A DNA stretch of 64,000 nucleotides from Candidatus Wildermuthbacteria bacterium (GCA_963739285.1 CAVTZN010000002.1:1134-65133), one strand, 5' to 3'; counted from the first letter of the stretch, positions 4,864-50,734 are shown. The notes: a model not told the origin generated them from the letters alone. Made by a program: numbers and translations.

Positions 4864-4874
4864 ATTATTTTAGT

Positions 4875-5275
4875 CTATCTTTTACAATCAAGACAGAACC
4901 TGGCTCCGGGATAAGCTTCCAACCTTTCTTCGGAAATTTCTTTGCCGCATTTTTCACATTTTCCAAAAGTTCCTTTCTAAGAATATGCGGAGCATTCAAG
5001 GTTCTCGCTGGAAGAGAGGTTCTTATTTTTTCTAATGCTAAATTAACATCCCTCAGTTTTAATTCGAGAGTGTGTTCGATCGGCAAGCGGGCTTCATATT
5101 CTACAACTTCATCAGCCGCCTCTTCCAAAGGACCGCCATTAAATTCCGGAAAACGAGTATCCCAGTCGCCTTTTAGTTTGTCGTCTTTTTTGGCAAAAGA
5201 ATTTAACTCTTTTTCCAAGATTCCCTTTTCCTTTTCCAATTTTTCTTTTAATTCCTGAATTAAGTTTTTATCCAT
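4875..5275 (-). CDS. DksA/TraR-family C4 zinc-finger protein; the zinc finger is encoded in the -1 frame relative to the N-terminal coiled coil
   Basis: The track ORF has the coiled-coil N-terminus. The adjacent frame reads [33 protein letters not shown] and stops at 4875-4877. Confidence 0.7.
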
Positions 5276-5284
5276 ATATTAATT

Positions 5285-6660: not shown

Positions 6661-6686
6661 TTTGTTTTTAGCTAAGACATGATTAT

Positions 6687-8796
6687 TTACGTTTGGGTTT
6701 TGGCGTCTTTTAACGATAGGTTTATTCTGCCCTGTTCATCAATAGAGATTACCTTGACCGGCACGATATCTCCAATCTTGACCACATCCTCAACTTTTCC
6801 CACTCGATAGGTGGCTAGTTGGGAAATATGAATTAATCCTTCCTGGCCGGGCAGGATTTCGGCGAAAGCGCCAAAATTTAAAATTCTTTTGATTTTTCCC
6901 TGGAAAACTTCCCCTACTTTTACCTCTCTGACGATGTTTTTAATCCAGTCAATGGCTTTTTTGGCTGCCTCTTCTTTCTCGGAGGTAACATAAATTAAGC
7001 CAGTAGGCTGGATGTCAATTGCCACTCCGGTTTCTCCAATGATTTCGTTGATTATCTTCCCTCCCGGTCCGACTACTTCTCTTATTCTATCCGGATTAAT
7101 TTGAATGGTTAAAATACGAGGAGCAAAAGGCGACAGCTCGGGCCTGGGCTTGTCTAGAACTTTTTCCATGGCGTCCAGGATTTTATTTCTTGCTTTCTTT
7201 CCCTTGTCCAGAGCTTCCTTCAGGATTTCCTCAGTAATTCCTTCAATTTTGACGTCCATCTGCAGGGCGGTTATTCCCTTTCTGGTTCCGGCTACTTTAA
7301 AATCCATATCTCCATGGTGGTCTTCAGGGCCCTGAATATCGGTTAAAATTTTGTAGCTTCCTTTTGAATCTTGCATCAATCCGAGGGAAATTCCGGCTCC
7401 GGGTGACTTAATCGGCACTCCCGCGTCCATGAGGGCCAGAGAAGAAGAAGAAATCGAGGCCATTGAAGTGGAGCCGTTGGAAGAAAGGATTTCTGAAACT
7501 ATTCTGATAGTATAAGGGAAATTTTCAACTGGCGGGATTAAGGGTAAAAGGGCTTTCTCTACCAACATGCCATGGCCGATATCTCTTCTCCCGGGACCTC
7601 TTAACGGCTTAATTTCTCCGGTCGAATAAGGAGGAAAGTTGTAGTGGTGCAGAAATCTTTTTTTGCCGACAATTTCCATGCCTTCCAGAATCTGCTGATC
7701 GCCGGGAGCCCCTAAGGTTAGAATGGAAAGGGCTTTGGTTTGCCCTCGACAAAAAAGCCCTGAGCCATGCGTCCGGGGCAATATCCCCACTTCACAAGAA
7801 AGTTGGCGTATCTCGTCAAGGTCCCGGCCGTCCGCTCTTTTTCCCTTTGAAATTGCATTTTCATGGAGAACTCTTTCGGTTTCTTTTTCAAAAAAGGAGA
7901 GGGCATATTTCACCTTTCCCCCTTCCGGATATTTTTCTTCAATAAAAAAAGACAGGTCTTTTTTAAGATTATCCAATTGCTCGACCCGATAAGCTTTTTC
8001 TTTTTGGTAAAGGGCTTTTTCCAGCCTCTCTTTCAAAAAGATTCCCACCTCTTTTTCTAATTCAGTATCAATTAATTGGGGTTCGAGAGAAGCTTTTTCT
8101 TTGCCAGCCATTTTTAAAATTTCTTTTTGGAAATCAAAAACTTTTTTTAAATGAGGTTTGGCGAAATCCCAGGCATCGGAAACCAATTTTTCATCAACCT
8201 CTTCAAAGCTTCCCTCAATCATGTTGGCGAGGATTTTGTTGTTTTTTTCGACGGCTCCGAAGATCAAATCCACCTGACTTTTCTCCCTTTGTTCATAAGT
8301 CGGGTTGAGAACAAATTCGTTGTCGATTCGGCCAACCCTAACTGCTCCGATTGGTCCTGACCAGGGAATATCAGAAATAGAGAGCGAGATAGAGGCCGCC
8401 AATAAACCAACGACGTCAGAGTCGTTTTCGCCATCCCAGGATAAAACCGTGGCCACTACTTGAACCTCGCGATTCAGGTCTTTCGGAAAGAGCGGCCGAA
8501 TGGTTCTGTCAATCAGACGAGAATTACAAATCGCCTCGTCCGAGGGACGAGACTCTCTTTTGATATATCTGGGGCCGCGGATTTTCCCGGCCGCATAGTA
8601 TTTTTCTTCGTAATCTACCGTCAGGGGGAAGAATCCCATGTCCCTCTTTTTCAAATTTCGACATGACGCAGGTTGCCATAACTAAAGTATCGCCATAACG
8701 CAAAAAAACCTCACCATTGGCTTGCTCGGCTAAATTTCTGACATTGGCTTCCATATTTCTGCCCCCGAGTTCTAATTTTAAAATTTCTCCTTTCAT
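6687..8796 (-). CDS. pnp: polyribonucleotide nucleotidyltransferase (PNPase), frameshift near 8640
   Basis: Contains RNase PH domains, KH and S1 (FFPLTVDYEEKYYAAGKI, GDMDFKVAGT). The N-terminal 90 aa lie in ORF 8524-8796. The rpsO-pnp arrangement is conserved synteny. Confidence 0.9.
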
Positions 8797-8829
8797 ACTT
8801 CAATAATTTCGTCCTGACCCCTGACTTTT

Positions 8830-9396
8830 TTAGAGGATTATATTTTTTAATAAATATTTCCCTGGCGCTTTGTCTAAATCAATAAATTCATCAGTCGTTT
8901 CTTTTAATTTTAAGGAAGTAGTCCGGCCAAAGGCCAGAACCTCCACTCTTTTCCCCTGGTTTTTTAAATATTCAACCAAGGGAATAAAGTCGCCATCGCC
9001 GGAGGCCAGGGAAATGACATCAACTCCGGCCGCGGTTCTGATAGCGTCAATAACAATTCCCACGTCCCAATCAGCTTTCTTCATTCCTCCGTAGAATTCT
9101 TGGAGATCTTTGATTCGCGTTTCAATTCCCAGCTTGACTAAGGCTTCAAAAAAAGGCTTTTCCTCGCCAGTTTTCGTTCTGACAACATAGGCAAAAGCCC
9201 GGATTAGTTTTCTTTGCAAAACTGCCCGGTTTAAGACTTCCCGAAAATTAACCCTGGCTCCATAAAGATTTTTTGCCGAATGGTAAAGATTCTGAACATC
9301 GAGAAGAACAGCTACTCTCTGCTCTTTATGGGCGATGATATTATTTTCTGAGACCGATTTTTTTGACGATACTGGCATATCTTTTTTCATCCTCAT
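8830..9396 (-). CDS. NYN-domain (LabA/DUF88-like) protein
   Basis: [17 protein letters not shown] ... [30 protein letters not shown], the typical NYN/LabA signature. Confidence 0.7.
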
Positions 9397-9607
9397 TCTT
9401 CAGATAACTGAGCAATTTTTTTCTTTTGGCTACCTGTTTGAGCAGCCCTCTTTTTGAATGGAAATCTTTTGAGTGTTTTTTTAAATGCAAAACCAGCCTT
9501 TTGATTTCCTCGGTTAATAAGGCAATTTGGACTTCTGAAGAACCCGTATCAGTGTCATGGATTTTATATTTCTTGATTAAGATAGATTTTTCTTCAGGTG
9601 TTAACAT
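9341..9607 (-). CDS. rpsO: 30S ribosomal protein S15
   Basis: 88 aa, with [36 protein letters not shown]. Confidence 0.9.
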
Positions 9608-9692
9608 ATATCAACTAAATTTTAACATATAAAATAAAAAGGGCAAAATTACCCTGACAAACTAATCGCTGATGATTAATAACTAATTTTAG

Positions 9693-9764
9693 TGCCCCCA
9701 CCAGGATTCGGACCTGGAGTCAACTGCTTAAGAGGCAGCTGCTTTACCATTAAGCTATGGGGGC
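9693..9764 (-). tRNA. tRNA-Lys(CUU)
   Basis: Hand fold of GCCCCCA/TGGGGGC acceptor, anticodon loop CTCTTAA, T arm CCAGG-TCCGAAT-CCTGG (C at position 55). No encoded CCA. Confidence 0.75.
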
Positions 9765-9772
9765 GAGAAAAA

Positions 9773-9806
9773 GGCGGGGCTGCTCTACCAGTTGAGCTAC
9801 AGGGGC
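9773..9806 (-). pseudogene. tRNA 5' fragment (acceptor strand + D arm + start of anticodon arm), with no T arm or 3' acceptor
   Basis: GCCCCTGTAGCTCAACTGGTAGAGCAGCCCCGCC is followed by TTTTTCTC and then directly by tRNA-Lys. Confidence 0.5.
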
Positions 9807-9817
9807 AAGGACTAGTT

Positions 9818-10270
9818 CTATTGAACAGAGCACTCAATTTGAAACCAATTTTCTGGATTCCAGTCAAGATCAGGATTGATAAATCCTGAAAAAGTTAAAA
9901 CGAAATTGACAAAAATCCAGGCGCAATAGACGATGATTAAGCCAACCACTACCGAGGTTATTAATCTTTTTGCCTTTTGCAGGCCTTCGGGGCTGCCGCC
10001 GGCAAAAAAGAACATTATGCCGCCAATAACTAACATTAAAGTAGCAATAATAGGAACAATGCCATCGGGAGGAAGTAAAAGAAAATCAATAATCTTTTTA
10101 AACAATTGAAAGAAATCACAAAGAGTGCAAGGATCTTGCCCTGATCCGCCACAAGTGACTAGCCCCTCTTCTTTTGCTTGAACCGGGGCAAGGGATAGAA
10201 ATATAAAAACCAAAAAAGTTATTAAAAATATTTTTTTCACCCCGTTAGAAATTTTTAGTAAATTTTTCAT
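9818..10270 (-). CDS. secreted/membrane T4SS-pilin-like (TrbC/VirB2-like) protein
   Basis: Signal peptide, Cys-containing segment, then IMFFFAGGSPEGLQKAKRLITSVVVGLIIV. The same motif occurs in the three paralogs at 59.8-61.0 kb. Confidence 0.5.
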   Translation of the reverse strand: MKNLLKISNGVKKIFLITFLVFIFLSLAPVQAKEEGLVTCGGSGQDPCTLCDFFQLFKKIIDFLLLPPDGIVPIIATLMLVIGGIMFFFAGGSPEGLQKAKRLITSVVVGLIIVYCAWIFVNFVLTFSGFINPDLDWNPENWFQIECSVQ

Positions 10271-10329
10271 ATTTTTGAAACCCCATTAGAGATTTAGTTT
10301 TAATAAGGAATTTTAACGGGGTTCAAAGG

Positions 10330-10404
10330 TGCCCTCGCCAGGATTCGAACCCGCACCCCCTGCTCCGAAGGCAGGTACTGATATCCGTTTCACTACCGAG
10401 GAGC
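10330..10404 (-). tRNA. tRNA-Arg(UCG), irregular acceptor/D region
   Basis: Anticodon arm CCTGC-CTTCGGA-GCAGG and T loop TTCGAAT. The acceptor pairs only if one T in GCTCCTCG is bulged, which may be an indel error. Confidence 0.55.
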
Positions 10405-10491
10405 CGCACAAAACTCTTTAAGTTTTTGTATAGGGCTTAATTATTTTAGCAAAAGAATTGAAAAAAACAATTTTTCAGATAAGATGAGAAT

Positions 10492-11805
10492 ATGAGCATC
10501 CCAAAAGAAGTTCAATCTGTTATCACCCGATTGAAAAAGAAGGATTTCCAGGCCTATATTGTCGGCGGTTGCGTCCGGGATTTTTTATCTGGAGTAACGC
10601 CAGAAGACTGGGATGTGACAACTGATGCCAAACCGGAAGAAATCCAAAAAATATTCCCAAAAAGTTTTTATGAAAATAAATTTTTAACCGTGACTGTCCA
10701 GACCGGAAGCAAAAACCCAAAACTCAAAGAAATTGAAATTACCACTTATCGTTCGGAAGCAAAATATACTGACAAACGTCATCCGGACGAGATTAAGTTT
10801 GCCAAGACCATTGAGGAGGATTTAGCGAGAAGAGATTTTACCGTTAATGCCATAGCCATGGACGAAAAATTAAAAATTATTGACCCCTTTGGAGGCCAGA
10901 AAGACCTTAAAAATAAAATTATTCGGGCGGTAGGAAATCCCAAAGACAGGTTTTCGGAAGATGCCCTGAGAATGATGAGGGCAGTAAGGTTTGCCACAAC
11001 CTTAGGATTTAAAATCGAGCCGAAAACCGCTGAAGCAATCAAAAAGAACGCTCAAGGATTGGAAGCAATTTCCAGAGAAAGAATCAGGGATGAATTTTTG
11101 AAAATCATCATGTCGGAAAAGGCGGCCGACGGGGTTGAGCTTTTGCGCCAAATCGGTTTATTAAAATATATCGTCCCCGAATTAGAAGAAGGCTACGGCG
11201 TCTCTCAAAACAAGCATCATATTTACGGATGTTATGAGCATTCAATTCTTTCTCTAAAATACGCTGCCCAAAAAAAATTCAACAAGTATGTCAGATTGGC
11301 GGCCCTGTTTCATGATATTGCCAAGCCCAGGACTAAAAAAGGGGAAGGGTTGGACTCCACTTTCTACGGCCACGAAGCCCTGGGGGCGAAAATGACAAAT
11401 CAGATTTTAAATCGTTTAAAGTTTCCCCAAAAAGAGATTGAAAAAATCACCAGATTGGTGAGATACCACCTTTTTTATTATAATGTTGACGAGGTTGGCG
11501 AAGCCTCGGTCAGAAGATTGGTCAGAAATGTTGAGCCCGAAAATATGGAAGAATTATTACAGGTCAGGATGGCAGACAGAATTGGTTCTGGCGTTCCCAA
11601 AGCCGAACCATATAAATTAAGACATTTAAAATATGTCATTGAAAAAGTTACCCAGGACCCGATCTCGGTCAAGATGTTGAAGGTTTCGGGAAATGACGTG
11701 ATGACGTCTTTGAAAATTAAATCAGGGCCTAAAATAGGACAAATTTTAGACATTTTATTAAGTTCTGTTTTAGAAACACCGAAAAAAACAAAAAAGATAT
11801 TTTAG
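10492..11805 (+). CDS. cca: CCA-adding tRNA nucleotidyltransferase with HD domain
   Basis: IVGGCVRDFL...DWDVTT, RDFTVNA, and an HD region (LFHDIAKP). Confidence 0.85.
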   Translation: MSIPKEVQSVITRLKKKDFQAYIVGGCVRDFLSGVTPEDWDVTTDAKPEEIQKIFPKSFYENKFLTVTVQTGSKNPKLKEIEITTYRSEAKYTDKRHPDEIKFAKTIEEDLARRDFTVNAIAMDEKLKIIDPFGGQKDLKNKIIRAVGNPKDRFSEDALRMMRAVRFATTLGFKIEPKTAEAIKKNAQGLEAISRERIRDEFLKIIMSEKAADGVELLRQIGLLKYIVPELEEGYGVSQNKHHIYGCYEHSILSLKYAAQKKFNKYVRLAALFHDIAKPRTKKGEGLDSTFYGHEALGAKMTNQILNRLKFPQKEIEKITRLVRYHLFYYNVDEVGEASVRRLVRNVEPENMEELLQVRMADRIGSGVPKAEPYKLRHLKYVIEKVTQDPISVKMLKVSGNDVMTSLKIKSGPKIGQILDILLSSVLETPKKTKKIF

Positions 11806-12091
11806 AAAAGGAAATAAAAAAATTGGGTAAATTCCCTGAAACGAACTTCAAAAGTTGGCCCAAAGAGCTGAAAAGGAAAGAAACAAAATAGAGACGAAAA
11901 GAGACGAGATGACGAAAGCTAAATATTGGGTGACTTAGCTCGGGAATACAATTTTTAGGACACGCTCTGTCCCGCCAGCGCGGGACAAGCTCCTTTCCTC
12001 GGCAAATTTTCGCCTTCGGCGAAACCATGCAATTTGCCTGCGGATGGTCCGTAAAAATTTGTTCTCTCGCACGCTAATTCTACATTAATTA

Positions 12092-12162
12092 CGGGGTGGA
12101 GTATGACGGTAGTACACATCCTTCGGGAGGATGTAGACTGGGTTCAACTCCCAGCACCCCGA
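12092..12162 (+). tRNA. tRNA-Pro(CGG)
   Basis: C1-G72 acceptor CGGGGTG/CACCCCG, anticodon arm CATCC-TTCGGGA-GGATG, T loop TTCAACT. Confidence 0.8.
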
Positions 12163-12188
12163 CAAAAACTTTTTAGAGTTTTTGTATA

Positions 12189-12259
12189 GGGCCTGTAGTT
12201 TAACGGTAGAACGGGGCATTCGCATTGCTCTGATGCGAGTTCAATTCTCGCCAGGTCCA
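12189..12259 (+). tRNA. tRNA-Ala(CGC)
   Basis: Acceptor GGGCCTG/CAGGTCC with a G3:U70 pair, anticodon loop TTCGCAT. Confidence 0.8.
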
Positions 12260-12261
12260 CT

Positions 12262-12642
12262 ATGACTTCCAAGGAATTGGGCGATTTGGGTGAAAAAATT
12301 GCCTCAGATTTCTTAAAAAAGAAAGGATATAAAATTTTGGAGAAAAATTATATTCCCAAATGGCTTCGAGGACCGGAGAAAAAAGAGATTGATATTATAG
12401 CTAGGAAAGATGATATAATTTCTTTTGTTGAAGTAAAAACTTTAAGTGGAGAAAGTCAAACATTTTTACCGGAAGATAAAGTTAATTTTCAAAAACAAAG
12501 AAAAATTCTAAGAGTTGCCGAGAGCTATCTTTTGGAAAAGAGAATTTCGCCTGAAACAAAATGCCAGGTTGACGTTATAGCCATTAACATTGATTTAAAT
12601 TTAAAGAAAGCCAAAATTAAACATCTTAAAAACGTTGCTTGA
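12262..12642 (+). CDS. yraN: YraN-family (UPF0102) endonuclease-like protein
   Basis: LGEKIASDFLKKKGYKILEKNY ... EIDIIARKDDIISFVEVKT. The ATG lies 2 nt after the tRNA-Ala 3' end. Confidence 0.8.
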   Translation: MTSKELGDLGEKIASDFLKKKGYKILEKNYIPKWLRGPEKKEIDIIARKDDIISFVEVKTLSGESQTFLPEDKVNFQKQRKILRVAESYLLEKRISPETKCQVDVIAINIDLNLKKAKIKHLKNVA

Positions 12643-12730: not shown

Positions 12731-13982
12731 ATGGATATTAAGGAATTTACATCAGCCATTTCTCAAATAGCCGAGGAAAAGGGAATACCTTCTGAAAAGG
12801 TTATTGAGACCATTGAAATGGCCATTGCCGCGGCTTACAAAAAAGATTACGGAGAAAAAGGTCAGGTCATCAGGGCCAAACTTGATTCCGAAAGCGGCGA
12901 GGTAAAATTTTGGCAAGTAAAATTGGTAGTTAACGCCTCAATGATTTTTTCCGAAGAAGAATTAGAAAAAATGAAAGAGAAAAAGATTGAAGAAGGGCCT
13001 TCCTTCGAGAGGGCTGAGGAGGGCAAAGAGAAAGTCCGTTTTAATCCAGAAAGGCACATCATGTTAAATGAGGCTAAAAAGATAAAGCCCAAAATTAAAG
13101 CTGGCGAAGAATTAGAAATCCTTCTGGAAACCCACAAAGATTATGGCCGGATTGCCGCCCAGACTGCCAAACAAGTTATTTTACAAAGGATTCGAGAAGC
13201 GGAGAGAGAAACAATTCTTTCTGAATTTAAAGCGAAAGAAGGAGAAATTGTTTCGGGCATAGTTCAGAGGGTAGAGGGAGGAAATGTTTTTTTGGATATT
13301 GGCAAGACAGTCGGAATATTGCCGAGAGAAGAACAGGTCCAAGGGGAATTTTATCGAATGGGACAGAGACTCAAAGTTTATCTTTTGAAAGTGGAAGATT
13401 CTTCCAAAGGGTCCGGTGATTTTTCTATCAAGAGTCTATCCCAAAATAATTTCTAAACTTTTTGAATTAGAAGTCCCGGAAATTGCCCAAGGGCAAGTGG
13501 TGATAAAATCAATTGCCAGGGAGGCGGGCTCAAGGTCAAAAATCGCTGTTACCTCTCTGTCAGAAAGCGTTGACCCGATAGGTTCAATGGTCGGTCAAAA
13601 GGGAACAAGGGTGGCGGCAGTCATTAATGAACTGGGCGGAGAAAAAATAGACATTATCGAATGGGCAGAGGATTCTGAAAGGTATCTGGCCAATAGTTTG
13701 TCTCCGGCCAAAGTTTTAGAAGTGAAAATCGAACCAAAAAACAAGGCCGTGGTTATTGTCCCCGAAGACCAGCTGTCTTTGGCCATTGGTAAAGAGGGCC
13801 AGAACGTCAGATTGGCCGCCAAATTAACCGGCTGGAAAATTGATGTCAGGGGCCCGGCAGCCGAGGAAACAGCAGAAGTTAAAGAAGCAGAGGAGGCGGA
13901 AGAGAAAGTGGAAAAAGAAGAAAAAAAGGGAAAGACCCTCCTCCGAAGCTGCGGAGGGCAAGGAGGAAAAAGAAAAAACTAA
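12731..13982 (+). CDS. nusA: transcription termination/antitermination factor NusA, +1 frameshift at about 13417-13425 (aaaggg run)
   Basis: The N-terminal domain and S1 are in ORF 12731-13456. KGPVIFLSRVYPKIISKLFELEVPEI plus the KH domains are in ORF 13416-13982. Confidence 0.9.
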
Positions 13983-16749: not shown

Positions 16750-17972
16750 ATGAGACATACAATTCAAAAATTGCCAAAATCTCAGGTTGAGATTTTTTTT
16801 GAAATTCCGGCCGAGGAATTTAAAGATTATTTTGACGAAGCTGTTTTGAATTTGGGCAAAGATCTTGAATTTGAAGGATTCCGTAAGGGCAAGGCGCCAA
16901 AAGAAATTGTTGAAAAAGAATTAAATCCTGGCAAAATTTTGGAAGAAGCCGCCAATTTGGCGGCAAGAAAAAGTTATATTAAGGTAGTTTTGGAAGATAA
17001 AATTGAAGCGATTGGAAAACCAGAAATTCAGGTGACAAAACTTGCTAAAGGAAATCCATTGGAATTCAAGGCCAAGGTTGCGATAATTCCCGAAATGGAT
17101 TTACCTGATTATAAAAACATTGCTTCAAAAATTAAACCAAAAGAAGTTTTTGTTGAAGAAAAAGAAGTTGAAGAAGCGATAAGCTTTTTTACAAAAATCC
17201 CGGGCTAAACTTTCAGCCAAAAACTACTGCCTCTGAAATCGGAGATTTCCTGGAGATTTCTTTTCAGTCTCCCCAAATTGAAGAAGGAAAATCTCAGAAA
17301 GATTCTTTTATTTTGGGTCAAGGCCATTTTATCCCTGGCTTTGAAGAAAACCTCACGGGCTTGGGTGCAGGGGCAGAAAAAGAATTCTCTTTAACTTTTC
17401 CAGAAAATCATCTTCAAAAGAATTTAGCCGGCAAACCAGTTGATTTTAAAGTTAAAATTATCTCGGTCAAAAAAATCGAATTGCCGGAGATTAACGACAA
17501 TTGGGTAAAATCACTGGGGAATTTCGAAAATTTAGAAGGTTTAAAGAAAAACCTCCGAGAAGGAATTAAGGCAGAAAAAAACGAGGAGGAGAGGCAGAGA
17601 AATCGAACTGAGATTTTAGAAAAAATTTCCGAAGAAACTTCTTTGGAAATTCCTGATATTTTAATTGATTTTGAAAAAGAGAGAATGGTTGAAGAACTGA
17701 AAGCGAGTCTTCAGAACCAATTTCAGATGAGCTTTATTGATTATTTAACAAAAATTAAAAAGACGGAGGAGGAACTAAAAGAATCTTTTTCGCCAGAAGC
17801 GGAAAAAAGAGTGAAAAACTTTCTCATTTTGAGAGAAATTGCGAAAAGAGAGAATGTTCCGGTTTCAGAAAAGGAAATTGAAGAAAAAATAAACGAAGTT
17901 TTTAAGAATTACCCAGGAGCTGAAAAAGCCCCAAAGGAGGTTGACCTTAGAGAAATTAAAAGAGTATTATGA
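16750..17972 (+). CDS. tig: trigger factor, frameshifted between 17200 and 17320
   Basis: The N-terminal ribosome-binding domain (FEGFRKGKAPKEIVEK) is in ORF 1. The PPIase-like and C-terminal domains are in ORF 2. tig-clpP synteny is conserved. Confidence 0.85.
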
Positions 17973-18017: not shown

Positions 18018-18603
18018 ATGAACCTTATCCCCACAGTTATAGAAAAATCACAATACGGCGAACGCGCTTACGATATTTATTCACGCCTTTTGAAAGATAG
18101 AATTATTTTTTTGGCTAGCGTAATTACTGATCAAGTTGCTAATTCTGTCATTGCCCAGATGTTACACTTGGCTTCCAAAGACCCAAACAAGGACATTCAG
18201 ATTTATATTAATTCACCTGGCGGTTCGGTGACAGCCGGAATGGCAATTTACGACACCATGCAATACGTGAAGCCGGATATTTCAACTGTCTGCATCGGAT
18301 TGGCCGGTTCCATGGGAGCCACCATTTTGGCGGCTGGCGCCAAAGGCAAAAGATTCGCCCTGCCCAATTCTGAAATTTTGCTTCATCAGGTAATGGGTGA
18401 GGCTGGCGGTCAGGCCATAGAAATTGAAATTACGGCAAAACAAATTATTAAAATTAAAGATAAGCTAAATAAAATTTTAGCCAAACACACCGGTCAGCCC
18501 TTAGAGAAGGTGGAGAAAGATACCGACCGTGACTTTTACTTATCAGTCTGAGGAAGCCAAAACCTACGGCATTATCGACGAGGTAATTAAAACAAAAGAA
18601 TAA
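18018..18603 (+). CDS. clpP: ATP-dependent Clp protease proteolytic subunit; single-base frameshift near 18545
   Basis: [29 protein letters not shown] and GLAGSMGA. The C-terminus (S)[17 protein letters not shown] continues in the next frame. Confidence 0.9.
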
Positions 18604-18671: not shown

Positions 18672-18975
18672 ACCCCCACACCTAATCAGCATAAGATAAT
18701 CTCATGTATTTCTTTTATATTCTGAAAAGCAAGAAATCAAGAAAATTATACTTAGGATATACGAATGATCTTCGAAAAAGACTTAAAGAACATAATCAAG
18801 GATTGTCAAAAGCCACAAAACCATATATTCCCTGGCAAATCGTATATTACGAAGCTTATCTTTCAAAAGAAGAGGCCATAAAAAGAGAAAACAACCTTAA
18901 ACTGCGAGCAAATGCCTGGAATCAACTGAGACTAAGAATCAAAAAGAGTATTCAATGTTGATTAGGTGTGGGGGT
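18672..18975 (+). mobile_element. GIY-YIG ORF cassette bounded by perfect 17-bp inverted repeats
   Basis: ACCCCCACACCTAATCA at 18672-18688 is the exact reverse complement of TGATTAGGTGTGGGGGT at 18959-18975. The right repeat overlaps the ORF stop codon. Confidence 0.45.
18704..18961 (+). CDS. GIY-YIG nuclease-domain protein (UPF0213/YhbQ-like)
   Basis: FFYILKSKKSRKLYLGYTNDLRKRLKEHNQG, the GIY-(x10)-YIG type motif. Confidence 0.75.
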   Translation: MYFFYILKSKKSRKLYLGYTNDLRKRLKEHNQGLSKATKPYIPWQIVYYEAYLSKEEAIKRENNLKLRANAWNQLRLRIKKSIQC

Positions 18976-19002
18976 TGACAAATCTTGAGAAAGGAGTATA
19001 AT
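18975..19002 (+). promoter_or_regulatory. near-consensus sigma70-type promoter
   Basis: TTGACA (18975-18980), a 16-nt spacer, then TATAAT (18997-19002), about 85 nt upstream of the ORF at 19089. Confidence 0.5.
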
Positions 19003-19088: not shown

Positions 19089-19640
19089 ATGAAAACGAAA
19101 AGGATTGCGATTATAGCCTTGATGATGGTGGTGGTGATTGTGATGCCATTGTTCGCCGGTTGCATGGTCCCCCAAAACGTCCAGGACGAGCTGGATCAGC
19201 TACGTGCCGATAAGAAGCAGTGGACGGAGGTGGATAGGCCAGCACTGGAAAAAGAGATTGCTGCGCTGAAAAATGTCCCGGTACTAGCCCCAAGCCCCCA
19301 AGACCCGACTTACTCAGACTTGATGGATTGGATTGCCCGGGACCAGACAAATACCCTTACATTTACCCCGATGGGGTATTACGCAACGACACTTTTTGCC
19401 TTTGCGCGGATGGCAGGAATTAAACTCTATATGGTCAGGGTAACGATTGTCGGTCCACCTCAACAATACTGGTACTTCTGCGCTTCCCACACTACTACTA
19501 CCGGTAAAGAGTTGGTTTATCTCCTTCCCTCTGAAGACAGGGAGATAACGCTCGTGCCCGGGAAGAAGCTTCATGAACTTATCGGCGGTCCCGAGTACGT
19601 TCAGGATGATACAATCCTAAAGATTGAGTTATTTGAGTGA
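19089..19640 (+). CDS. putative lipoprotein, no recognised domain, in a GC-rich island
   Basis: Signal peptide with a lipobox (PLFAGC) and a GGAGAAAAAA RBS-like upstream sequence. GC is markedly higher than in the flanks. Confidence 0.6.
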   Translation: MKTKRIAIIALMMVVVIVMPLFAGCMVPQNVQDELDQLRADKKQWTEVDRPALEKEIAALKNVPVLAPSPQDPTYSDLMDWIARDQTNTLTFTPMGYYATTLFAFARMAGIKLYMVRVTIVGPPQQYWYFCASHTTTTGKELVYLLPSEDREITLVPGKKLHELIGGPEYVQDDTILKIELFE

Positions 19641-19785: not shown

Positions 19786-20900
19786 ATGAAAGAAAAAAAT
19801 AATAATTTCCCATCTGATTATCAGTCAGTTTGTCGAGTTGAGAATTTTTTCGAAAATCTTGTCCAAAAAATTATTGGGAAATTGACTTTGGAAGAGGATA
19901 AAAAGCCCTCTTTTATTTATGCTCACCCTGCTTTAATTTTTTTAACTACCACCCGTTGTAATTTCAATTGTCCCCATTGTTTAAGGCAAATTGTTGATGG
20001 TGGCAAAACAATAATAAAAGATATGCCCATTTCAGTTTTCGAAACAGCATTGAGGGAGGGTAAAAAGATTGGGCTGAGAAGAGCTTCCTTCACCGGCGGC
20101 GAAACTATTTTGCATCCCCAATTCAGGGAATTAGTCGAATTAACTAAAAAATACAATTATAATTTTAGGATAGTAAGCAACGGCTGGTTCTATAAAGATT
20201 ATTTACCAATTATTAATTCTGCCAGAAAAAATTTTGATGTAATTTGTTTCAGTTTAGACGGAGCAACGGCTGAAGTTCACGATAGTTTTAGAAATAAACC
20301 AGGTTCTTTTAAAAGAATAATTGAAGCAATAAAGCTCTATAGAAAAAATCAGATACCCGTAACATTGCAGACCTGTCTTAATAAAAAAAATTACGACCAA
20401 ATTGAGGGAATTGTGAATCTTTGTTTAAAATTTGGAATAGAAAGTTTAAGCTTTATGATAGAAATACCCATTTCAAGGTCAGGGTTAACAAATCAGGAAC
20501 TTTCTGAGATCGTTCAAAAAATGGCATATCTCAGAGAAAAAGTAAAAAATAGAGTTTTTATTGCGCCCTGCGCCTCATTTTTTCAGAAAGAGGCAATATT
20601 AGAAAGGAAATTAATTTCTGCCCCGTTTTAGGGATACGGACTAGAACCATATATTGATCCGAAGAAGGGGGAATGATTTTTTGCTGTGATATTTTTCAAA
20701 AATGTAGCCAAAAACCCTTGATTCAAAAAGAGGGTTTTGAAAAATCTTACAGAATATGTTTAGAGACAGCAAACCAGATTAAAAAACAACGGCTTTATGA
20801 CATCTTCAATAATCCGGAAGGAGTAATTGGCACCTGCGATTACTGCAATAAACACGTTGAAAAAGCCCTTAAAATGGCAAGGAAAATAGAAAAATTATAA
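19786..20900 (+). CDS. radical SAM enzyme with C-terminal SPASM-like Cys-rich domain (several frameshifts at 20580-20675)
   Basis: CNFNCPHC (CxxxCxxC), then GGETILHP. The C-terminal Cys motifs are spread over three frames (NFCPVLG, YIDPKKGEMIFCCDIFQKC, GTCDYCNKH). Confidence 0.75.
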
Positions 20901-20912
20901 AGCGTAAGAATT

Positions 20913-22445
20913 ATGCTAGAAGATAAAAATAATTCTTTAGATAAATATAATTATCAACCAGTTTGCCGCGCCGGGGATTTTTTTGAGAATCTTGCCGAAC
21001 AAGAAAGATTAGAACTGGAAAAATATCCATCCCTCCCTTCGCTTTTTAGCTTAATGCTCAATAAAGTTTATTCTAATTTCTTGAAATTCATTGAAAATAT
21101 CATTGGGGTTAAACTTTATACTTCTATTCAGGATTTCCCCTTCCTCGAATATTTCCCTGAGAACGAAAAAATTAGTGGCTAATTTTCTTCAAAAAAAAAT
21201 TATTAATCAAATATTGAGATTGCCGCGAATTTATTCTGACGAACCTTACATTATCCAGTATCGGGCCGAAGAGCCAACCGTCTTGCCAGATATTTCTTCT
21301 TATTCTGATGGCAACGGCAGTTTTTCAAAATATAGCGCTGGAGCTGATTTTAATGAGGAGAGATCTTTAATGAAAACCGTAGGTGAGGGATTAGAAAGAT
21401 TTTGCCTTTGTGTATACAGAGAAAAACATTTTTTGCTTTCGACTTTTGATAAGATTTCCCAAAAAGCCCTTAGCCCTCTTTCTTTTGCCGGTATTTCTCC
21501 TTCTCAGCGCCAAGCCAATCCAAGATTAAAAATAGATGAAAAATCTGTTTTTCGCTGGGTTGAGGGTTTTTCTCTTTATGATAAGAAAAAAGTATTTATT
21601 CCCGCTCAACTTGTTTATGTTGGATATAAATATCATCCTCAAGAGCCGATGATTCGGGAGCAAATCAGCACTGGCGCAGCAGCGGCTGATTCTTTTAAAG
21701 GGGCCCTCTATAAAGGAATTTGCGAGGCGGTTGAAAGAGATGCTTTTATGATTACCTATTTCAATAAACTTTCTCCCAGCAATAATAGAACTCGAGACAA
21801 TCGATGATGAGATTATTCAAAGGTTATTGGCGATGTTTAAACGTTACAATTTAGAAATTTATCTAATTGATATAACAACTGATATTGCCATCCCTTCAAT
21901 GATGGCAGCGATAATAGATCGAACCGGCATAGGTCAGAGTATCTGTATCAGCACCAGAACTGATTTAGATATTATCCAAGCCATTCGGGGTGCTATTTTT
22001 GAAGCCATCCAAGGAAGGATTGAGTTCCGGGGAGTACCGTTCTCTTCTCCCGATATGGTAAAGAAGAGGAAAGGAATTAAAATCCGTTCCCTCTCGGATA
22101 AAAACCTTTACTGATAGATATCTTTTTTGGAGTTCTTTAGATATGATTAAAAAAATTGAATTTCTTTTTCAAGGTCCGAAGAGAAAAATTAATATAGAAG
22201 AACAAAATAGATATAAAGATTTATCCGATAAAGAAAAACTAAAAATAGCCCTAAGAATTCTTGAAAAAAGAAAAATTGATATTTATGGAATTGACATTAC
22301 TCTTCCCCAGATAAAAGAAGAAGGAATTTATGTGGCCAAAGTTATTTCTCCCCAACTTCAGCCCCTTTATTTAGATGAAGGAATAAGGCATTGTTGGGGC
22401 GAGCGCCTTTTTAATGTTCCGGTAAAATTAGGTTATCGCAGATAA
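20913..22445 (+). CDS. YcaO-domain cyclodehydratase-like protein (four ORF fragments)
   Basis: VGEGLERFCL, ISTGAAAADSFKGALYKGICEAVERDAF, and IDITTDIAIPSMMAAI. The fragments are collinear on one strand. Confidence 0.8.
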
Positions 22446-22499
22446 ACCCCTATCTGAAAACGAGATTAAATTCTTTACCGCACCCCTTCCTTTAAAATT

Positions 22500-23251
22500 A
22501 TGAATTACTCTATGGCTAAAATTTTTCATCAACTGACAAAGGAAAAATATCAAGAGGGTTGGGACAAACCAACAAGCCCTCCGATTTTACCTCCGGAATG
22601 GCTAACAATTTATTTTAAAGAATACCCTCGTTTGCCAAAAGTTTTACTGCCGAAACCCAAGAAATTAGATTTTTCTATCGGAGAATCCTTAATTAAAAGA
22701 AAATCAGAAAGAGAATTTAATGGGAAGCCGATAAATCTTAAAGATTTAAGCCAACTCCTTTTTTATTCAGCCGGCATTATTGAAAAAAAAGAAAATGATT
22801 GGAACAAAACCCATCGAGCTTATCCTTCAGGAGGAGGCCGTTTTCCTTTGGAGATTTATCTTTTTAATCTCCAAACAAGCAATGAATTGAAAGAAGGGAT
22901 TTATCATTACAATGTCAAAGAGCATTAGTTTAGAGAAATTATTGAAGAAAAGAATTTAAGAAAAGAAATTTATCCCGAAGCTATTTGGCAGGAGATGATA
23001 CTTAAAAGCCCCCATAGTTTTAGTTATTTCAGCTGTTTTTGAGAGAACATATGATAAAATATAAAGAGAGAGGATACAGGTATATTCTTTTTGAGGCCGG
23101 GCATTTAGGGCAAAATATTTATTTGGTCAGCAAGGCCCTCGGCCTTAAATGTTGCGCTATTGGTGGTTTTGATGATGATAAATTTCATGAACTTTTGGAT
23201 ATTGACGGTGACAACGAAGCGGTTCTTTATGCCTTTGCTATGGGGTATTGA
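22500..23251 (+). CDS. SagB-type (nitroreductase-fold, FMN) dehydrogenase (at least 3 frameshifts at 22925-23060)
   Basis: RAYPSGGGRFPLEIYL, GIYHY, APIVLVISAVFERTY (shifted frame), and GYRYILFEAGHLGQNIYLVSKALGLKCCAIGGFDD. Confidence 0.8.
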
Positions 23252-23323
23252 CAGACGTCCTTGATATAATAAAATAAAGATAGGTCGAATATGATTTTAA
23301 ATACGGACTTAGTATTAAAAATA

Positions 23324-23749
23324 TGAAAAAGAAAATTTTATTTATTATTTTAGGCTTAATTTTAGCTGGTTTAATATTCTGTGGTGGAGTTTATTTTGAC
23401 GAGACTTATTTTAGCCAGAAAATTCACCGTCGCAGAAGCTCAATCCGATTTTTATCATTACTTTTCTACTACCTTGATTGATGGGTTTGGAATAGTAAAA
23501 GAGATTGATGTTAATAACTCCATTATTACTTTATCTTCTCAAATTTCTGAAGATAAAACCCTGAAAGTTAATTTTAATGAAAATAGCCGATTTTATCAGT
23601 TTTTGGCCTGGGAAGAAAATGGAAACATAAAAGCCGAGCCAATTGAATTAAAGGCCTTAAAAATTGATGACAAGGTTTATTTTGCCTGCCGGCCGAACCC
23701 AGAAGGCAACTTTATCCTTCTTTGGCTAAATGTCGCAAGCAAAGAGTAA
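23324..23749 (+). CDS. small secreted/anchored hypothetical protein (signal peptide in a different frame from the body)
   Basis: The ATG at 23324 gives MKKKILFIILGLILAGLIFCGGVYF. The body is ORF 23381-23749. Confidence 0.45.
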
Positions 23750-23831
23750 ATAGCTAAAAATTATTTTTTTAAAAAACATGTTTCCCGTTATCATTTCTTC
23801 ATTATTAAATAAAGAGGGAAGGGGTTCCAAA

Positions 23832-24335
23832 ATGGTTTACCCTTTTAAACTATTAGCCCTTTTACTTTTAGTAATTATCTTGTCTTTTTTCTGGTTGGGC
23901 GGGAAGATTTTTAAATCAGAAAAATTAAGTAAATCATTTTCCAAAATTTCTACTTCAGGCGATGTCTATGCCCAAGGTAGCTCTGGTATGTGCTGCAGCT
24001 GTAGTGGTGGTTCTGGTGGTGGTTCTGGTGGTGGTTCTGGTGGTGGTTCTGGTGGTGGTTCTGGTGGTGGTTCTGGTGGTGGTTCTGGTGTCGGTGGTTA
24101 CGCAGGTGGCATTGGTTACGGTGGCGTTGGTGCTGGTCCTGGCGTTGGTTATGCGTGTTCTGGCGCTGTTGGTACTTGCAGTGCTGTTGGCGTTGCTGGT
24201 GCTGCTGGTGCTGCTGGTGCTGGTGCTGCTGGTGCTGGTGCTGCTGGTGCTGGTGCTGCTGGTGCTGGTGGCTGTAGTAGTTGCTCTTGTTCCTGCAATT
24301 GTACTCCTCCCTCGGTAGATATCGAGGTGAAATAA
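23832..24335 (+). CDS. Gly/Ser/Cys/Ala-rich repeat protein with N-terminal TM helix; candidate azole-RiPP precursor
   Basis: GAGGGAAGGGG RBS before the ATG at 23832. The sequence has a TM helix (FKLLALLLLVIILSFFWLGG), GMCCSCSGG, (SGGG)x6, a GYGG/GAG region, (AGAGAA)n, and GGCSSCSCSCNCTPP. Confidence 0.65.
   Translation: MVYPFKLLALLLLVIILSFFWLGGKIFKSEKLSKSFSKISTSGDVYAQGSSGMCCSCSGGSGGGSGGGSGGGSGGGSGGGSGGGSGVGGYAGGIGYGGVGAGPGVGYACSGAVGTCSAVGVAGAAGAAGAGAAGAGAAGAGAAGAGGCSSCSCSCNCTPPSVDIEVK
24003..24089 (+). repeat. 12-nt tandem repeat TCTGGTGGTGGT (SGGG), about 6-7 units
   Basis: Read directly; TCT recurs at 24012, 24024, 24036, 24048, 24060, 24072 and 24084. Confidence 0.9.
24193..24270 (+). 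repeat. GCT/GGT tandem repeat, 18-nt period (GAGAAG)
   Basis: gctggtgctgctggtgctggt recurs across 24193-24270. Confidence 0.85.
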
Positions 24336-24347
24336 TTTTAAACAAAA

Positions 24348-25325
24348 GTGTTCAAATCAAAAAGTAAAAAAATAATAGTTTTTGCATTAGCCCTATTTTT
24401 AGTTTTAGGGCTATTTCAGTTAACTTTTGCTTTGACTAAAAGTGTAGGCGAAACTTTTACCATTACGGCAACCTGCTCAGATTCTGATGGAAATCTCTCA
24501 AATTGTAAAATAACCTCTCCCTGTTCTAATAGTTGTTCGGCATCCGGTTCTTCTGGAACTTGTTCTTGTCAATTTACTTGTGCCACTGCAGGAACTTATG
24601 ATGCTTGTGGCACAGCAACCGATACAGGGGGACTCACAGGTACTAAATGTACGCCGGGTGCCATTATTTGTAAATCAAACAATCCTCCCACAGCCACCAA
24701 TCTCTATCGCGAGAATCCTGATTGGTGCGTCAATCCTTTCCAATTCAGATTAAACTGGACTTTTTCTGACCCTGACGGCGATACCCAATATGCCAAATGG
24801 ATTCAGGTAGACGATAACCTCAATTTTACCTCAATTGACCATGATTCAGGCAAGGTGGAAAACAATGAAATCCCTAGCTACACCACCTTTATGACCGATG
24901 GCAAAGGAGGCGTTCTCCAATTCAACAAGACCTATTACTGGAGAGTCAAGGTCTGGGATGCCAAAGGCGGAGAATCTGGCTGGATAACTTCTTCCCAAAC
25001 CCTGATTACTCCCGGACATGCCTATCCTGACCCTGACTTTACTTTTGAACCCTCCATGCCAAGAGAACTCCAGACAGTTCAATTCACTGACCAATCCTAT
25101 TCCCCTGTCAGCATAGCCAGATGGTATTGGACCTTCCAAGACGGCAGCCCTTCAACCTCAACCCAACAAAACCCGACAGATATTTTTGAAACTCCTGGCA
25201 ATAAGACGGTAATTCTGACTGTCTGGGATCCAGATAATTATTCCTGTTCGGGAGGAGAAAAAGGAGTGCAGGTAGTCCCGGTTGGCATTTTTGCTCCCAC
25301 TTGGCGAGAGATTATTCCGTGGTAA
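24348..25325 (+). CDS. secreted protein with Cys/Ser/Thr-rich N-terminal module, a beta-rich middle domain and a C-terminal PKD-like domain
   Basis: Signal peptide, SPCSNSCSASGSSGTCSCQFTCATAG, and a PKD-like WYWTFQDGSPSTSTQQNPTDIFETPGNKTVILTVWD. Confidence 0.6.
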   Translation: MFKSKSKKIIVFALALFLVLGLFQLTFALTKSVGETFTITATCSDSDGNLSNCKITSPCSNSCSASGSSGTCSCQFTCATAGTYDACGTATDTGGLTGTKCTPGAIICKSNNPPTATNLYRENPDWCVNPFQFRLNWTFSDPDGDTQYAKWIQVDDNLNFTSIDHDSGKVENNEIPSYTTFMTDGKGGVLQFNKTYYWRVKVWDAKGGESGWITSSQTLITPGHAYPDPDFTFEPSMPRELQTVQFTDQSYSPVSIARWYWTFQDGSPSTSTQQNPTDIFETPGNKTVILTVWDPDNYSCSGGEKGVQVVPVGIFAPTWREIIPW

Positions 25326-35484: not shown

Positions 35485-36833
35485 ATGCAAAATGTAAAAG
35501 GCAAAAGGCAAAATAGATTAGGTTTTACCTTAGTTGAAACTTTAGTAGCCGCTGGCCTAATGGCTATTGTTTTTGTGAGCTTGGCTACCGCTTTTCAAGG
35601 AGCGATAAAACTTTTGGGCGAAAATAAGGCCCGCTCCACTGCTATCGCTCTGGCCAATGAGAAAATGGAATTAATCCGCAATTTGCCTTATGAAGAAATT
35701 GGAACAATCGGAGGAATCCCTCAGGGAGATATTCTTCAAGAAGAAAATACACACCTTAAATGGAATTAGTTTTGTCCTTAAAACTTTTATTCAATATATT
35801 GATGACCCGGCTGATGGCTTGGATTTACAAGACGAAAATGGGGTTACGGCAGATTATAAAAAAGTCAGAGTTGAAGCGTCCTGGCAGGGAAGAGCCGGAC
35901 AAAAGTCCGTCGTCCTGATCTCTAATTTTTCTCCTCAAGGGATAGAGACGATTAGCGGCGGAGGGACTTTAATAATGTATGTTCTAGACGCCGCCTTCAG
36001 TCCTCTTCCCCGGGCCGAGGTTAAAATAGAAAATAGCGAGGTTTCGCCGTCGATTTCTTTAACCACTTTAACGAGTGACCAGGGGAAAGTCATCTTTCCT
36101 GGCAGTCCGGCCTCTGATAGTTATGAAATTACAGTTACCAAAACTGATTATAGTACTGCCCAGACCTATGACGTTTCTCCCCAAAATCCCAGTCCCAGCC
36201 CGGGTCATTTAAGTATCTTGGAGGGAAAAACAACCGAAGCCACTTTTTTAATTGATAGATTGGGGTCAAAAAGCGTTGATACTCTTTTGCACTCCGAAGA
36301 ATTACCATTGCCCAAATTACCCAATCTCACTTTTCAGATGAGGGGAGAAAAGACAATTGGTCAGAGATGCTGGAGGAAACCTGATCTATAAATATTCAAA
36401 AAATCTAACCACTGACCAAAACGGCCATTTGGCGATTTCCAGCTTGGAGTGGGATGCCTATCAAATTACTGTCAGCTCGGCCACGGGCTACGACATCATG
36501 GAATCCTGCCCCCCTCAACCCGCCAATTTACTGCCTGGAGATTCCATGGCTGCTACTTTAACCTTGACAGCTCATACTCAAAATACTTTTTTGGTTTTGG
36601 TGAAAGAAGGAAGCGGAGGAGTTGTTGAAGGGGCTGGCGCTCACCTTCTTAACCAAGCGCTTGGCTACGATAAAACCATTTCTTCAAGCAGCTGCGGTCA
36701 GGTATTTTTCAAATCCCTGTCTTCTGATAATAATTACTCTTTGGAGGTCGTCAAAGAAGGATACCAAAATTATTTACTGGAGAATATCTCAATTTCTGGG
36801 CAAAATAATTTAACCGTGACTTTAAATAATTGA
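35485..36833 (+). CDS. large pseudopilin: prepilin-type N-terminal motif + carboxypeptidase-regulatory-like beta domains (2 frameshifts)
   Basis: GFTLVETLVAAGLMAIVF. The downstream ORFs 35690-36391 and 36357-36833 are collinear. Confidence 0.65.
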
Positions 36834-39011: not shown

Positions 39012-39020
39012 AATTTTAAA

Positions 39021-40104
39021 ATGTTTGATTTTCTGAATTTAAAACAAGGAGCTTTCGGGTTGGATATCTCTGATTTATCTTTAAAGATTGCCAACCTCGG
39101 TAGAAAAGGGGATAATTTCCCCTTGGTTTCTTTTAGTGAAGAAGTAATCCCTAAAGGAGTAATTGAAGCCGGAGAGATTAAGAATGAAGATTTACTGGCT
39201 AAAATTATAAAAGAGGGAATAAAAAATGCCAAAGGCCAAAAAATAAAGACAAAATATGTGGTTTGTTCCCTGCCGGAAGAAAAATCCTATATCAGGCTCA
39301 TCCAAATGCCAAAAATGAAAGAGGAAGAGATTGCCGGAGCGGTCAGGTTTGAAGCTGAAAATCATATTCCTGTGCCGATTGAAGATGTCTATTTAGATTT
39401 CCAGGTTATTCAACCACTCTATAATCATCTTGACCACCTTGATATTTTAATTGCCGCCCTTCCTAAAAAAATAGTTGATCCTTATATTCTTTCTCTTAAA
39501 AAGGCCGGTCTCTTGCCCAAGGCCTTAGAAATTGAAAGTTCAGCGATTGCCCGAGCCCTGATTAAAAATGAGATGAGTCCTTTTCCGAGTTCTCTTAATT
39601 GATTTAGGAGCTACGAGAACGAGTTTCATTATTTTTTCTGGAACTTCTTTAAAATTTACCAGTTCCATCCCTATTTCTTCCCAGAAATTTACTGAGGCAA
39701 TCTCTAAAACTTTAAAAATCAATTTGGTTGAAGCCGAAAAATTAAAGCTAATGCATGGTTTAAAAAAGAATAATAAAGAAGGAGAGCTGGTTTTCGAAGC
39801 TTTGACCCCGGTTCTGACTGATTTAATTGGACAAATCAAAAATCACCTTAGCTATTATCAATCGCATGCCGAACATGAACATTTGCCATCTAATATTAAA
39901 GAAGTTAAAGAAATCTTGCTTTGTGGAGGAGGGGCTAACCTAAAAGGATTGGTGGAATTTCTTTTAGGAGAGCTTAAAATAAAAACAAAACTTGGCGATC
40001 CCTGGGTGAATATTTTGAAAGGGGTACCGGAAATGCCCTTTGAAAAATCATTATCTTTCACCACTGCCCTGGGATTGGCTTTAAGGGGCATAAAATATGA
40101 TTAA
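39021..40104 (+). CDS. pilM: type IV pilus assembly protein PilM (actin-like ATPase fold), frameshifted at 39600-39720
   Basis: GLDISDLSLKIANL ... LLCGGGANLKGLVEFL ... ALGLALRG. Confidence 0.8.
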
Positions 40105-44910: not shown

Positions 44911-45249
44911 ATGTCAAAGCGCCTCCAACGAGTTAACGAGCTTTTAAAAAGGGAAATATCAAAAATTATCCTGCGAGAGGTTGATTTCCCTGAAGATGCT
45001 TTAGTTACCGTGACCAGAGTTGAGACTTTGAGCGGTCTGAAAGAGTCTAAGGTTTGGATTTCTGTTCTTCCGGAAAACCAAAGAGCGGGAGTGGTCAAAA
45101 TTTTAAACCGCCAGATTTACAATCTTCAGCAAAAAATTAATAAACTTCTCAAAATGAGGCCTATACCGAAATTAAAATTTATTGACGAAAAAGAAGTGCA
45201 AGAAGCGGCTAGGATTGAAGAGCTTTTAGGAAAAATTAAAGATGTCTAA
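44911..45249 (+). CDS. rbfA: ribosome-binding factor A
   Basis: RVNELLKREISKIILREV; infB-rbfA synteny. Confidence 0.85.
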   Translation: MSKRLQRVNELLKREISKIILREVDFPEDALVTVTRVETLSGLKESKVWISVLPENQRAGVVKILNRQIYNLQQKINKLLKMRPIPKLKFIDEKEVQEAARIEELLGKIKDV

Positions 45250-50733: not shown

Positions 50734-50734
50734 A

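Follow-up and report, generated by a model that had tools for sequence, protein, structure and literature searches.

A family of putative linear azol(in)e precursors with a membrane-helix leader, encoded beside YcaO and SagB genes in CPR bacteria

We analyzed a 64,000-nucleotide stretch of DNA (the window) and found that one of its genes belongs to what is best described as a small, previously undescribed, CPR-restricted family of LAP-type precursors, of which it is the founding example in the window. The family is recognized by its gene association, a common architecture, purifying selection at both ends of the protein and a hypervariable core. The window protein is probably the substrate of the adjacent YcaO and SagB enzymes, together with a radical SAM (rSAM)/SPASM enzyme in this lineage, and a linear azol(in)e precursor whose leader anchors it in the membrane. 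CPR YcaO/SagB clusters have hitherto been antiSMASH detections with undefined substrates; a candidate substrate family is now defined for one clade. Its design is unusual, combining a membrane-helix leader, a hypervariable core and a conserved follower with no dedicated exporter or protease.

A conserved reading frame with an upstream start

A sequence-only reading of the window had described an ORF at 23832..24335 (+) as a microcin-B17-like precursor candidate. This ORF translates to 167 aa with all the described elements in the described order, and both SSGMCCSCSGG and the C-terminal GGCSSCSCSCNCTPPSVDIEVK are present in the translation. A perfect 12-nt tandem repeat accounts for the six exact SGGG units, as Tandem Repeats Finder confirmed; the Ala/Gly repeat, for which a period of 18 nt had been given, has a period of 15 nt in the same analysis (Table 1).

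The proposed start, ATG 23832 with a ribosome-binding site, had to be moved. Because family members begin 18 codons upstream, ATG 23832 is not conserved (the aligned codon is ATA (Ile) in locus L002 and Ile or Val in most members) and inter-locus differences in the segment upstream of 23832 are mainly synonymous, the true start is most likely ATG 23778, which gives a gene of 185 aa. With a start at 23778, the proposed ribosome-binding site falls within coding sequence.

Nei-Gojobori dN/dS lies at 0.06-0.40 in the leader and falls to 0.02 over the last 17 codons, and the conserved N- and C-terminal modules share one frame across independent assemblies. On this comparative evidence the ORF is a genuine gene that codes for protein in the stated frame and is under selection; the reading frame, which the earlier reading had named as a point on which its proposal could fail, is upheld by the in-frame conserved ends and the low dN/dS. 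The repeat DNA is also open in two further frames, at 23950-24345 (-) and 23962-24318 (+), where ORFs of 131 and 118 aa overlap the gene, so that the ORF might be no gene but a chance open frame across GGT/GCT-rich repeats open in several frames. This is exceedingly improbable: the other-frame ORFs have no counterparts in L001 and L002, only the stated frame is conserved among about 15 homologs with different cores, substitutions at both ends show a synonymous bias and the operon position is conserved. The comparative data effectively refute it.

Table 1 Features of the precursor-like gene and its cluster in the window.
Feature	Position	Strand	Basis or remark
Promoter-like site TTGACA-16-TATAAT, upstream of cluster	18975..19002	+	12/12; consensus match only
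Lipoprotein-like gene: signal peptide, Cys lipobox, coiled-coil N-part	19089..19640	+	L044 202-aa protein matches 19122-19625
Radical SAM/SPASM peptide-maturase-like gene	19786..20900	+	56-65% identity to intact 360-aa L044 rSAM; one frameshift near 20631-20672
SagD-type YcaO cyclodehydratase, ~135-aa N-terminal extension	20913..22495	+	60-70% identity to intact 504-525-aa homologs; 3-4 frameshifts
SagB-type FMN dehydrogenase	22500..23251	+	TIGR03605 matches; at least 4 frameshifts (22926-23050)
Promoter-like site TTGACA-16-TAAAAT, directly before partner and precursor genes	23248..23275	+	11/12; consensus match only
Small TM-anchored beta-rich partner protein (~137 aa in relatives)	23323..23749	+	Homology; one frameshift, near 23390
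Precursor-like gene, 185 aa, corrected start	23778..24335	+	Family comparison
N-terminal motif MFPVIISSLLN (window form)	23778..23810	+	Family alignment
Hydrophobic TM-type helix, residues 25-42	23850..23903	+	Mean Kyte-Doolittle 2.9 over 17 aa
[A/V]-x-A motif of the family, here V-Y-A, where leader meets core; candidate site of cleavage	23964..23972	+	Alignment; cleavage putative
Hypervariable low-complexity core, including SSGMCCSCSGG	23973..24266	+	Alignment
12-nt tandem repeat, (SGGG)6	24004-24090	+	Tandem Repeats Finder: 7.2 copies, 100% matches, score 174
15-nt tandem repeat, AAGAG unit	24194-24270	+	Tandem Repeats Finder: 5.1 copies, 96% matches
Conserved C-terminal module GGCSSCSCSCNCTPPSVDIEVK and stop codon	24267..24335	+	Alignment; dN/dS 0.02
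Secreted PKD/Ig-domain protein, Cys-rich N-part	24348..25325	+	Follows precursor in most loci

A small family with conserved ends and a hypervariable core

Homologs P0001, P0002 and P0003 and seven metagenomic loci were found before an exhaustive profile search added more. In that search, a leader profile run with HMMER against 1.84 billion representative proteins gave 16 matches at E<=1e-3, 15 of which are real. A full-length protein query was swamped by Gly-rich words (at least one homolog), and leader-only queries were more productive. The pattern MFP[IV]IISSL / W[LVA]GGKIFK had no match across 185,579 species genomes, and the L010 and L011 members, which start MLP…/MFPM…, were recovered only via their YcaO. 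All family members lie on CPR/Patescibacteria-type contigs, and the system is assigned to Patescibacteria/CPR by its YcaO relatives as well. None of the members matches a Pfam or NCBIfam model. The best subthreshold match was that of P0001 to TIGR03601 (heterocycloanthracin/sonorensin), at 14.8 bits against a cutoff of 35; the window protein does not match this model, and assignment to that group was rejected. Neither this precursor family nor YcaO substrates with Sec-type or TM leaders are described in the searchable literature.

Precursors of the family are 105-241 aa long. An N-terminus of the form MFPIIISSLL(N/E), described as an invariant decapeptide, is common to the family apart from the L010 and L011 starts given above. 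A short basic stretch follows and then a hydrophobic segment of 18-24 residues between charged flanks, with a mean Kyte-Doolittle value of 2.6-3.1 in the best 17-residue window; GGKIFK usually comes next. The linker of about 20 residues ends in [A/V]-x-A, followed by Q in most members (VYA/Q, AYA/Q, AHA/Q, ALA/Q, VFA/Q and AEA/Q). The leader is free of Cys: the cysteines (7-22 per protein) are confined to the core, and the first is residue 72-73 in 10 of the 16 members. Cores contain 24-66% Cys, Ser and Thr taken together and are unalignable even between close relatives. About 12 members end in CxCxC…(T/N/A/S/L)PPSV-x-I-x-V-x, the final six residues alternating between hydrophobic and polar.

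Even P0001, the closest relative of the window protein (nucleotide identity of ~80% across the conserved parts), differs in the core, where it carries an internal duplication of its own; such duplications are evident in P0001 and P0004. Length variation through repeats, which the sequence-only reading had predicted, is borne out by L011 and P0007, which are 100% identical save for an 18-residue (GDCG)n deletion. The SGGG and AAGAG repeats are lineage-specific filler in the hypervariable core; what the family conserves is the N-terminal motif with the TM helix, along with [A/V]-x-A, the Cys clusters and the PPSVxIxV tail.

The charge flanking the helix is +2.0 on the N side and +1.4 on the C side, values that leave its orientation undecided. 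The caution raised in the sequence-only reading therefore holds: a Sec-type N-terminus would put the core outside the cell, and co-translational insertion with the C-terminus outside would deny cytoplasmic enzymes access to it. The [A/V]-x-A motif fits the -3/-1 rule of signal peptidase I. In a canonical Sec signal peptide, organized as n-h-c, a small-x-small site follows the h-region at a distance of 3-7 residues; this assignment was rejected because [A/V]-x-A lies about 22 residues beyond the 18-24-residue hydrophobic segment. By inspection, we also rejected a type IV pilin signal, as there is no G/FTLxE motif, and a C-terminal sorting signal of the LPXTG or PEP-CTERM type, as the precursor has no C-terminal hydrophobic tail.

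Precursor genes recur downstream of YcaO and SagB

YcaO, SagB and rSAM genes lie upstream of the ORF on the same strand; the YcaO fragments match TIGR03604 and the SagB fragments TIGR03605. The two promoter-like sites in Table 1 would agree with the precursor unit being expressed separately and more strongly, but both are consensus matches only. Homologs of the lipoprotein-like gene accompany the cluster in L003, L004, L006, L011 and L044. Between ClpP and the cluster the window has an 85-aa GIY-YIG-like ORF (18704-18961), at a place occupied by other small genes in L011. The 5' ends of the window rSAM and YcaO genes (19786-19870 and 20913-21000) show DNA homology over ~70 nt and share Y-Q/N-x-V-C-R-x3-F-F-E-N-L; the EYQxV…FF motif is general to the YcaO clade and, among rSAMs, is carried only by the window's.

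YcaO and SagB are found upstream of the precursor gene in all nine other cassettes (eight loci) with enough upstream sequence. A search for homologs beside YcaO genes had been proposed as a check, and every other locus with enough upstream sequence has this arrangement. The core order is YcaO, SagB, (rSAM), (lipoprotein), TM partner, precursor, PKD, where the rSAM gene is optional. YcaO, SagB and a partner gene immediately before the precursor occur in the window, L003/L004, L007, both L010 cassettes, L011, L044 and L045; in L046, YcaO and SagB lie upstream too, but the 170-aa gene at the partner position does not align with the partner. L007 represents the minimal conserved set of YcaO, SagB, TM partner and precursor. 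The enzymes are intact in all related loci and broken only in the window: intact YcaO homologs score 237.5 (L003) and 250.2 (L007) bits for TIGR03604 against a cutoff of 219.25 bits, and intact SagB genes encode 246-260 aa.

Several of these loci have further traits. L044 is the closest relative of the window with context; at L044:7037-8257 SagB and the TM partner are called as a single 406-aa fusion, which is either real or due to a lost stop codon or frameshift. L011 (Candidatus Nealsonbacteria) is syntenic with the window in the trigger factor, ClpP and RNase Y flanks as well. L010 (CAZMQW010000008.1, a MAG labelled Saccharibacteria) holds two complete tandem cassettes at 2833-12055, each with its own precursor, and has an rSAM/SPASM gene and a PKD protein only in the second, a natural experiment on the rSAM contribution. 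A gene pair for PKD and a 155-aa TM protein is duplicated around the enzyme block (L003:77-1585 and 8892-10376, and L004) with 77-84% identity. In L004 the lipoprotein gene is also duplicated, and the C-terminus of the precursor is frameshifted relative to L003. The intact clusters L011, L044 and L010 are suited to heterologous reconstitution; in L011, YcaO occupies 10007-11557, SagB 11569-12318 and the precursor 12758-13204.

Homologs widespread without YcaO/SagB neighbors would have spoken against a precursor; among the family members found, only those of L006 and L047 have a different context. The 10 kb upstream of the L006 member contain no enzymes. The sequence of L006 breaks off within a PKD gene that shares 98% identity with the duplicated PKD gene opening L003. 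Given this identity, we do not count L006 as a counter-example; most likely it represents the upstream flank of a locus of this type, broken at the repeat. In L047:1-8764 (Logan SRR22315504) the divergent member P0011 (5412-5762), which has no PPSV tail, follows four radical SAM genes, and the 5.4 kb of upstream sequence present contain no YcaO. One of the four rSAMs is B12-binding and two are homologous to the rSAM pair of L003; a gene for a 794-aa beta-propeller protein follows P0011. NHLP/Nif11 leaders serve several maturase sets, and by analogy this leader family may do so too.

An unrelated 113-aa ORF was seen at L014:8063-11868 (JAIETH010000002.1, a Patescibacteria MAG), directly upstream of a 372-aa gene, YcaO and nitroreductase. 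It has an N-terminal hydrophobic helix, a 'QASA' motif and a Cys/Gly/Asp-rich tail, and the design of a helix leader with a Cys-rich core may recur in other CPR LAP clusters.

Frameshifts in the enzyme genes of the window

About 10 frameshifts interrupt the cluster (counts per gene in Table 1). They lie within 3.9 kb of enzyme genes, and the following ~11 kb are free of them. Together with a core that is poorer in Cys and richer in simple repeats than those of its relatives, this distribution could point to a relic in this genome, in which the enzymes are true pseudogenes and the ORF drifts into low-complexity repeats without being modified. We regard an unmodified relic of this kind as unlikely. 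Frameshifts are patchy across the window, with many long ORFs intact elsewhere, and housekeeping genes are split too, including trigger factor, ClpP (intact in the L011 copy) and a class-I aminoacyl-tRNA synthetase with KMSKS (62.6-64 kb), as are several other genes. Split-gene stretches are found at 16750-17972, 18018-18600, 35675-36833, 39012-40104, 45230-46208, 49634-50813 and 62580-63999. Because the split genes are patchy and include housekeeping genes, assembly indel errors are somewhat favored over specific decay of the cluster. Each enzyme fragment has also kept 48-83% amino-acid identity to intact homologs, and purifying selection acts strongly on both ends of the ORF. The DNA of L044 is 69% identical to the window, too distant to locate single indel errors. 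An alternative genetic code was rejected as the cause of the breaks, since the frame changes and there is no one recurrent in-frame stop codon.

YcaO extension, partner and PKD proteins

The clade-specific N-terminal extension of the YcaO comprises ~135 residues and begins with the EYQxV…FF motif. No Pfam match was obtained in this extension, and sequence searches found no RRE/PqqD in the N-terminal extensions of YcaO or rSAM. The clusters contain no gene for a separate E1-like/RRE partner (C or F protein). Because the YcaO of the nearest archaeal relative, L012, lacks the extension and is accompanied by a separate E1-like gene, we infer that the extension supplies substrate recognition in place of an E1-like/RRE partner. 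Among solved structures, the cyanobactin heterocyclases MusD, TruD and LynD come closest, with a match limited to the YcaO domain.

The TM partner contains no Cys (L007). A profile of this ~137-aa protein gave marginal matches to the SilF/CusF periplasmic metallochaperones (E ~0.01), and its single-sequence AlphaFold model has low confidence (pLDDT 54). That it acts as a chaperone or docking protein for the precursor is speculation.

The downstream PKD proteins (window 24348-25325; L010:10652-12055; L011:13212-15131; L003:77-1072 and 8892-9863; L044:9045-10163) share a Cys-rich N-module, …SPCSxSCSASGSSGTCSCQF…, that resembles QGSSGMCCSC of the precursor. Some end in PLPEYEEVPP and a hydrophobic tail.

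Proposed function of the precursor

In TOMM/LAP biosynthesis, azolines arise from Cys, Ser or Thr through cyclodehydration by SagD-type YcaOs, and flavoenzymes of the SagB type oxidize them to azoles. Given the recurrent synteny with YcaO and SagB, the window protein is very likely the substrate of the adjacent pair, in line with the precursor role first proposed for it. The conserved Cys-free leader, the variable core rich in Cys, Ser and Thr, the rarity of the family and its near-restriction to maturase contexts also point to a precursor, as do selection on leader and tail, a core that evolves by gain and loss of repeats and the L010 cassettes with a precursor each. Because the minimal L007 cluster offers no other candidate and its partner is without Cys, the precursor is the only plausible substrate.

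We infer the following chemistry, topology and cleavage. Residues 1-65 would form the leader, made up of the MFPIIISSLL motif, the basic stretch, the TM helix and the linker. Cys and Ser of the core, above all in the CCSCS and CSSCSCSCNC clusters, would be converted to thiazoles and oxazoles in the cytoplasm, and the conserved tail PPSVDIEVK may serve as a follower or docking element. The hydrophobic helix would then direct the modified protein to the general insertion or secretion machinery for passage into or through the membrane, a route suggested by the TM-type helix and by the clusters, which hold no ABC exporter or leader protease. Thereafter the protein might stay anchored or be freed by cleavage after [A/V]-x-A.

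The same features would suit an unmodified Cys-rich envelope or metal-binding protein, with metallothionein-like CxC motifs or disulfides, that shares a transcript with the operon's other extracytoplasmic proteins, beside YcaO and SagB enzymes that act on something else. Besides the TM helix and the CxCxC motifs, the extracytoplasmic nature of the neighbors (lipoprotein, TM-anchored beta-domain protein and PKD protein) fits a structural role in the envelope, and the marginal SilF/CusF-like match of the partner hints at metal. The partner, however, lacks the His/Met metal ligands of CusF, clusters as small as that of L007 hold no alternative substrate, the family is found only beside peptide-maturase genes and a conserved leader with a hypervariable core is typical of RiPP precursors. 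An unmodified protein is therefore decidedly unlikely.

An envelope role and modification could also be combined, with RiPP chemistry building an envelope component. The helix would anchor the protein on the surface of an episymbiotic CPR cell, its core azole-stiffened or metal-binding (with rSAM changes where that enzyme is present); PPSVxIxV would be an amphipathic strand docking on the TM partner or the PKD protein, and the leader family would serve YcaO/SagB sets or, in L047, rSAM enzymes alone. We hold this to be a minor but real possibility. If the product of the proposed precursor does stay on the cell surface, it would be a heterocyclized, fast-diversifying surface protein in host-attached organisms, with a direct bearing on the interaction of CPR cells with their partners.

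Comparison with known systems

The microcin B17 system (McbA-G) combines the McbA precursor with a three-part synthetase, McbBCD, in which McbB is a separate scaffold, and with McbEFG for export and immunity. Of the 'microcin-B17-like' label given to the window gene, the role as a YcaO/SagB precursor stands and the family assignment falls: the precursor has no homology to that family, and neither the window nor the related loci contain an McbB-type scaffold, an ABC transporter or immunity genes. Like known LAP/TOMM systems, the present clusters place a SagD-type YcaO and SagB next to a precursor with a conserved N-terminus and a core rich in Cys, Ser, Thr and Gly. In contrast to them, the precursors have a TM helix in the leader and a conserved C-terminal follower motif, and the clusters carry no separate E1-like/C-protein, ABC exporter, protease or immunity gene. 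The core resembles that of heterocycloanthracin in varying between strains and in changing through repeat indels (PMC2674419).

Sharrar et al. 2020 (PMC7298704) reported 110 LAP clusters in 93 CPR genomes, 89 of them with nitroreductase, in Parcubacteria and Microgenomates, by antiSMASH-level detection and with one 84-aa putative precursor. The present clusters are almost certainly of this kind; the precursor family with a TM leader, the TM partner and the PKD association are not in that paper.

The nearest parallels for the route to the membrane come from the MNIO field. Bufferins and DAG-RiPPs are MNIO-modified RiPPs with Sec or lipoprotein signal peptides, whose Cys-containing precursors undergo modification in the cytoplasm and are exported with no transporter dedicated to them, some products being protein-sized or membrane-bound (PMC11626156, PMC13056109). 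The present precursors likewise contain Cys and have an N-terminus that resembles a general export signal instead of a classical leader. The enzymes differ, with YcaO/SagB here and MNIO/DUF692 there: the only domains that Pfam and NCBIfam scans detect in the cluster genes are YcaO, nitroreductase, radical SAM and PKD, with no MNIO (DUF692) or DUF2063-type partner. So do the N-termini, as bufferins and DAG-RiPPs have canonical cleavable signal peptides and the present family a signal-anchor-like helix with a candidate cleavage motif ~22 residues downstream. MNIO-associated membrane proteins of TIGR04222 have been proposed as enzyme substrates with a low-complexity part outside the membrane (PMC12452194). 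They belong with another enzyme class, no NCBIfam match links the present family to them even at E<=10, and the present proteins combine a single helix with a conserved C-terminal tail. As precedents, bufferins, DAG-RiPPs and TIGR04222 proteins make a general secretion or insertion route plausible for the window protein and its relatives, which would extend the theme of RiPPs using general secretion signals from MNIO enzymes to YcaO chemistry.
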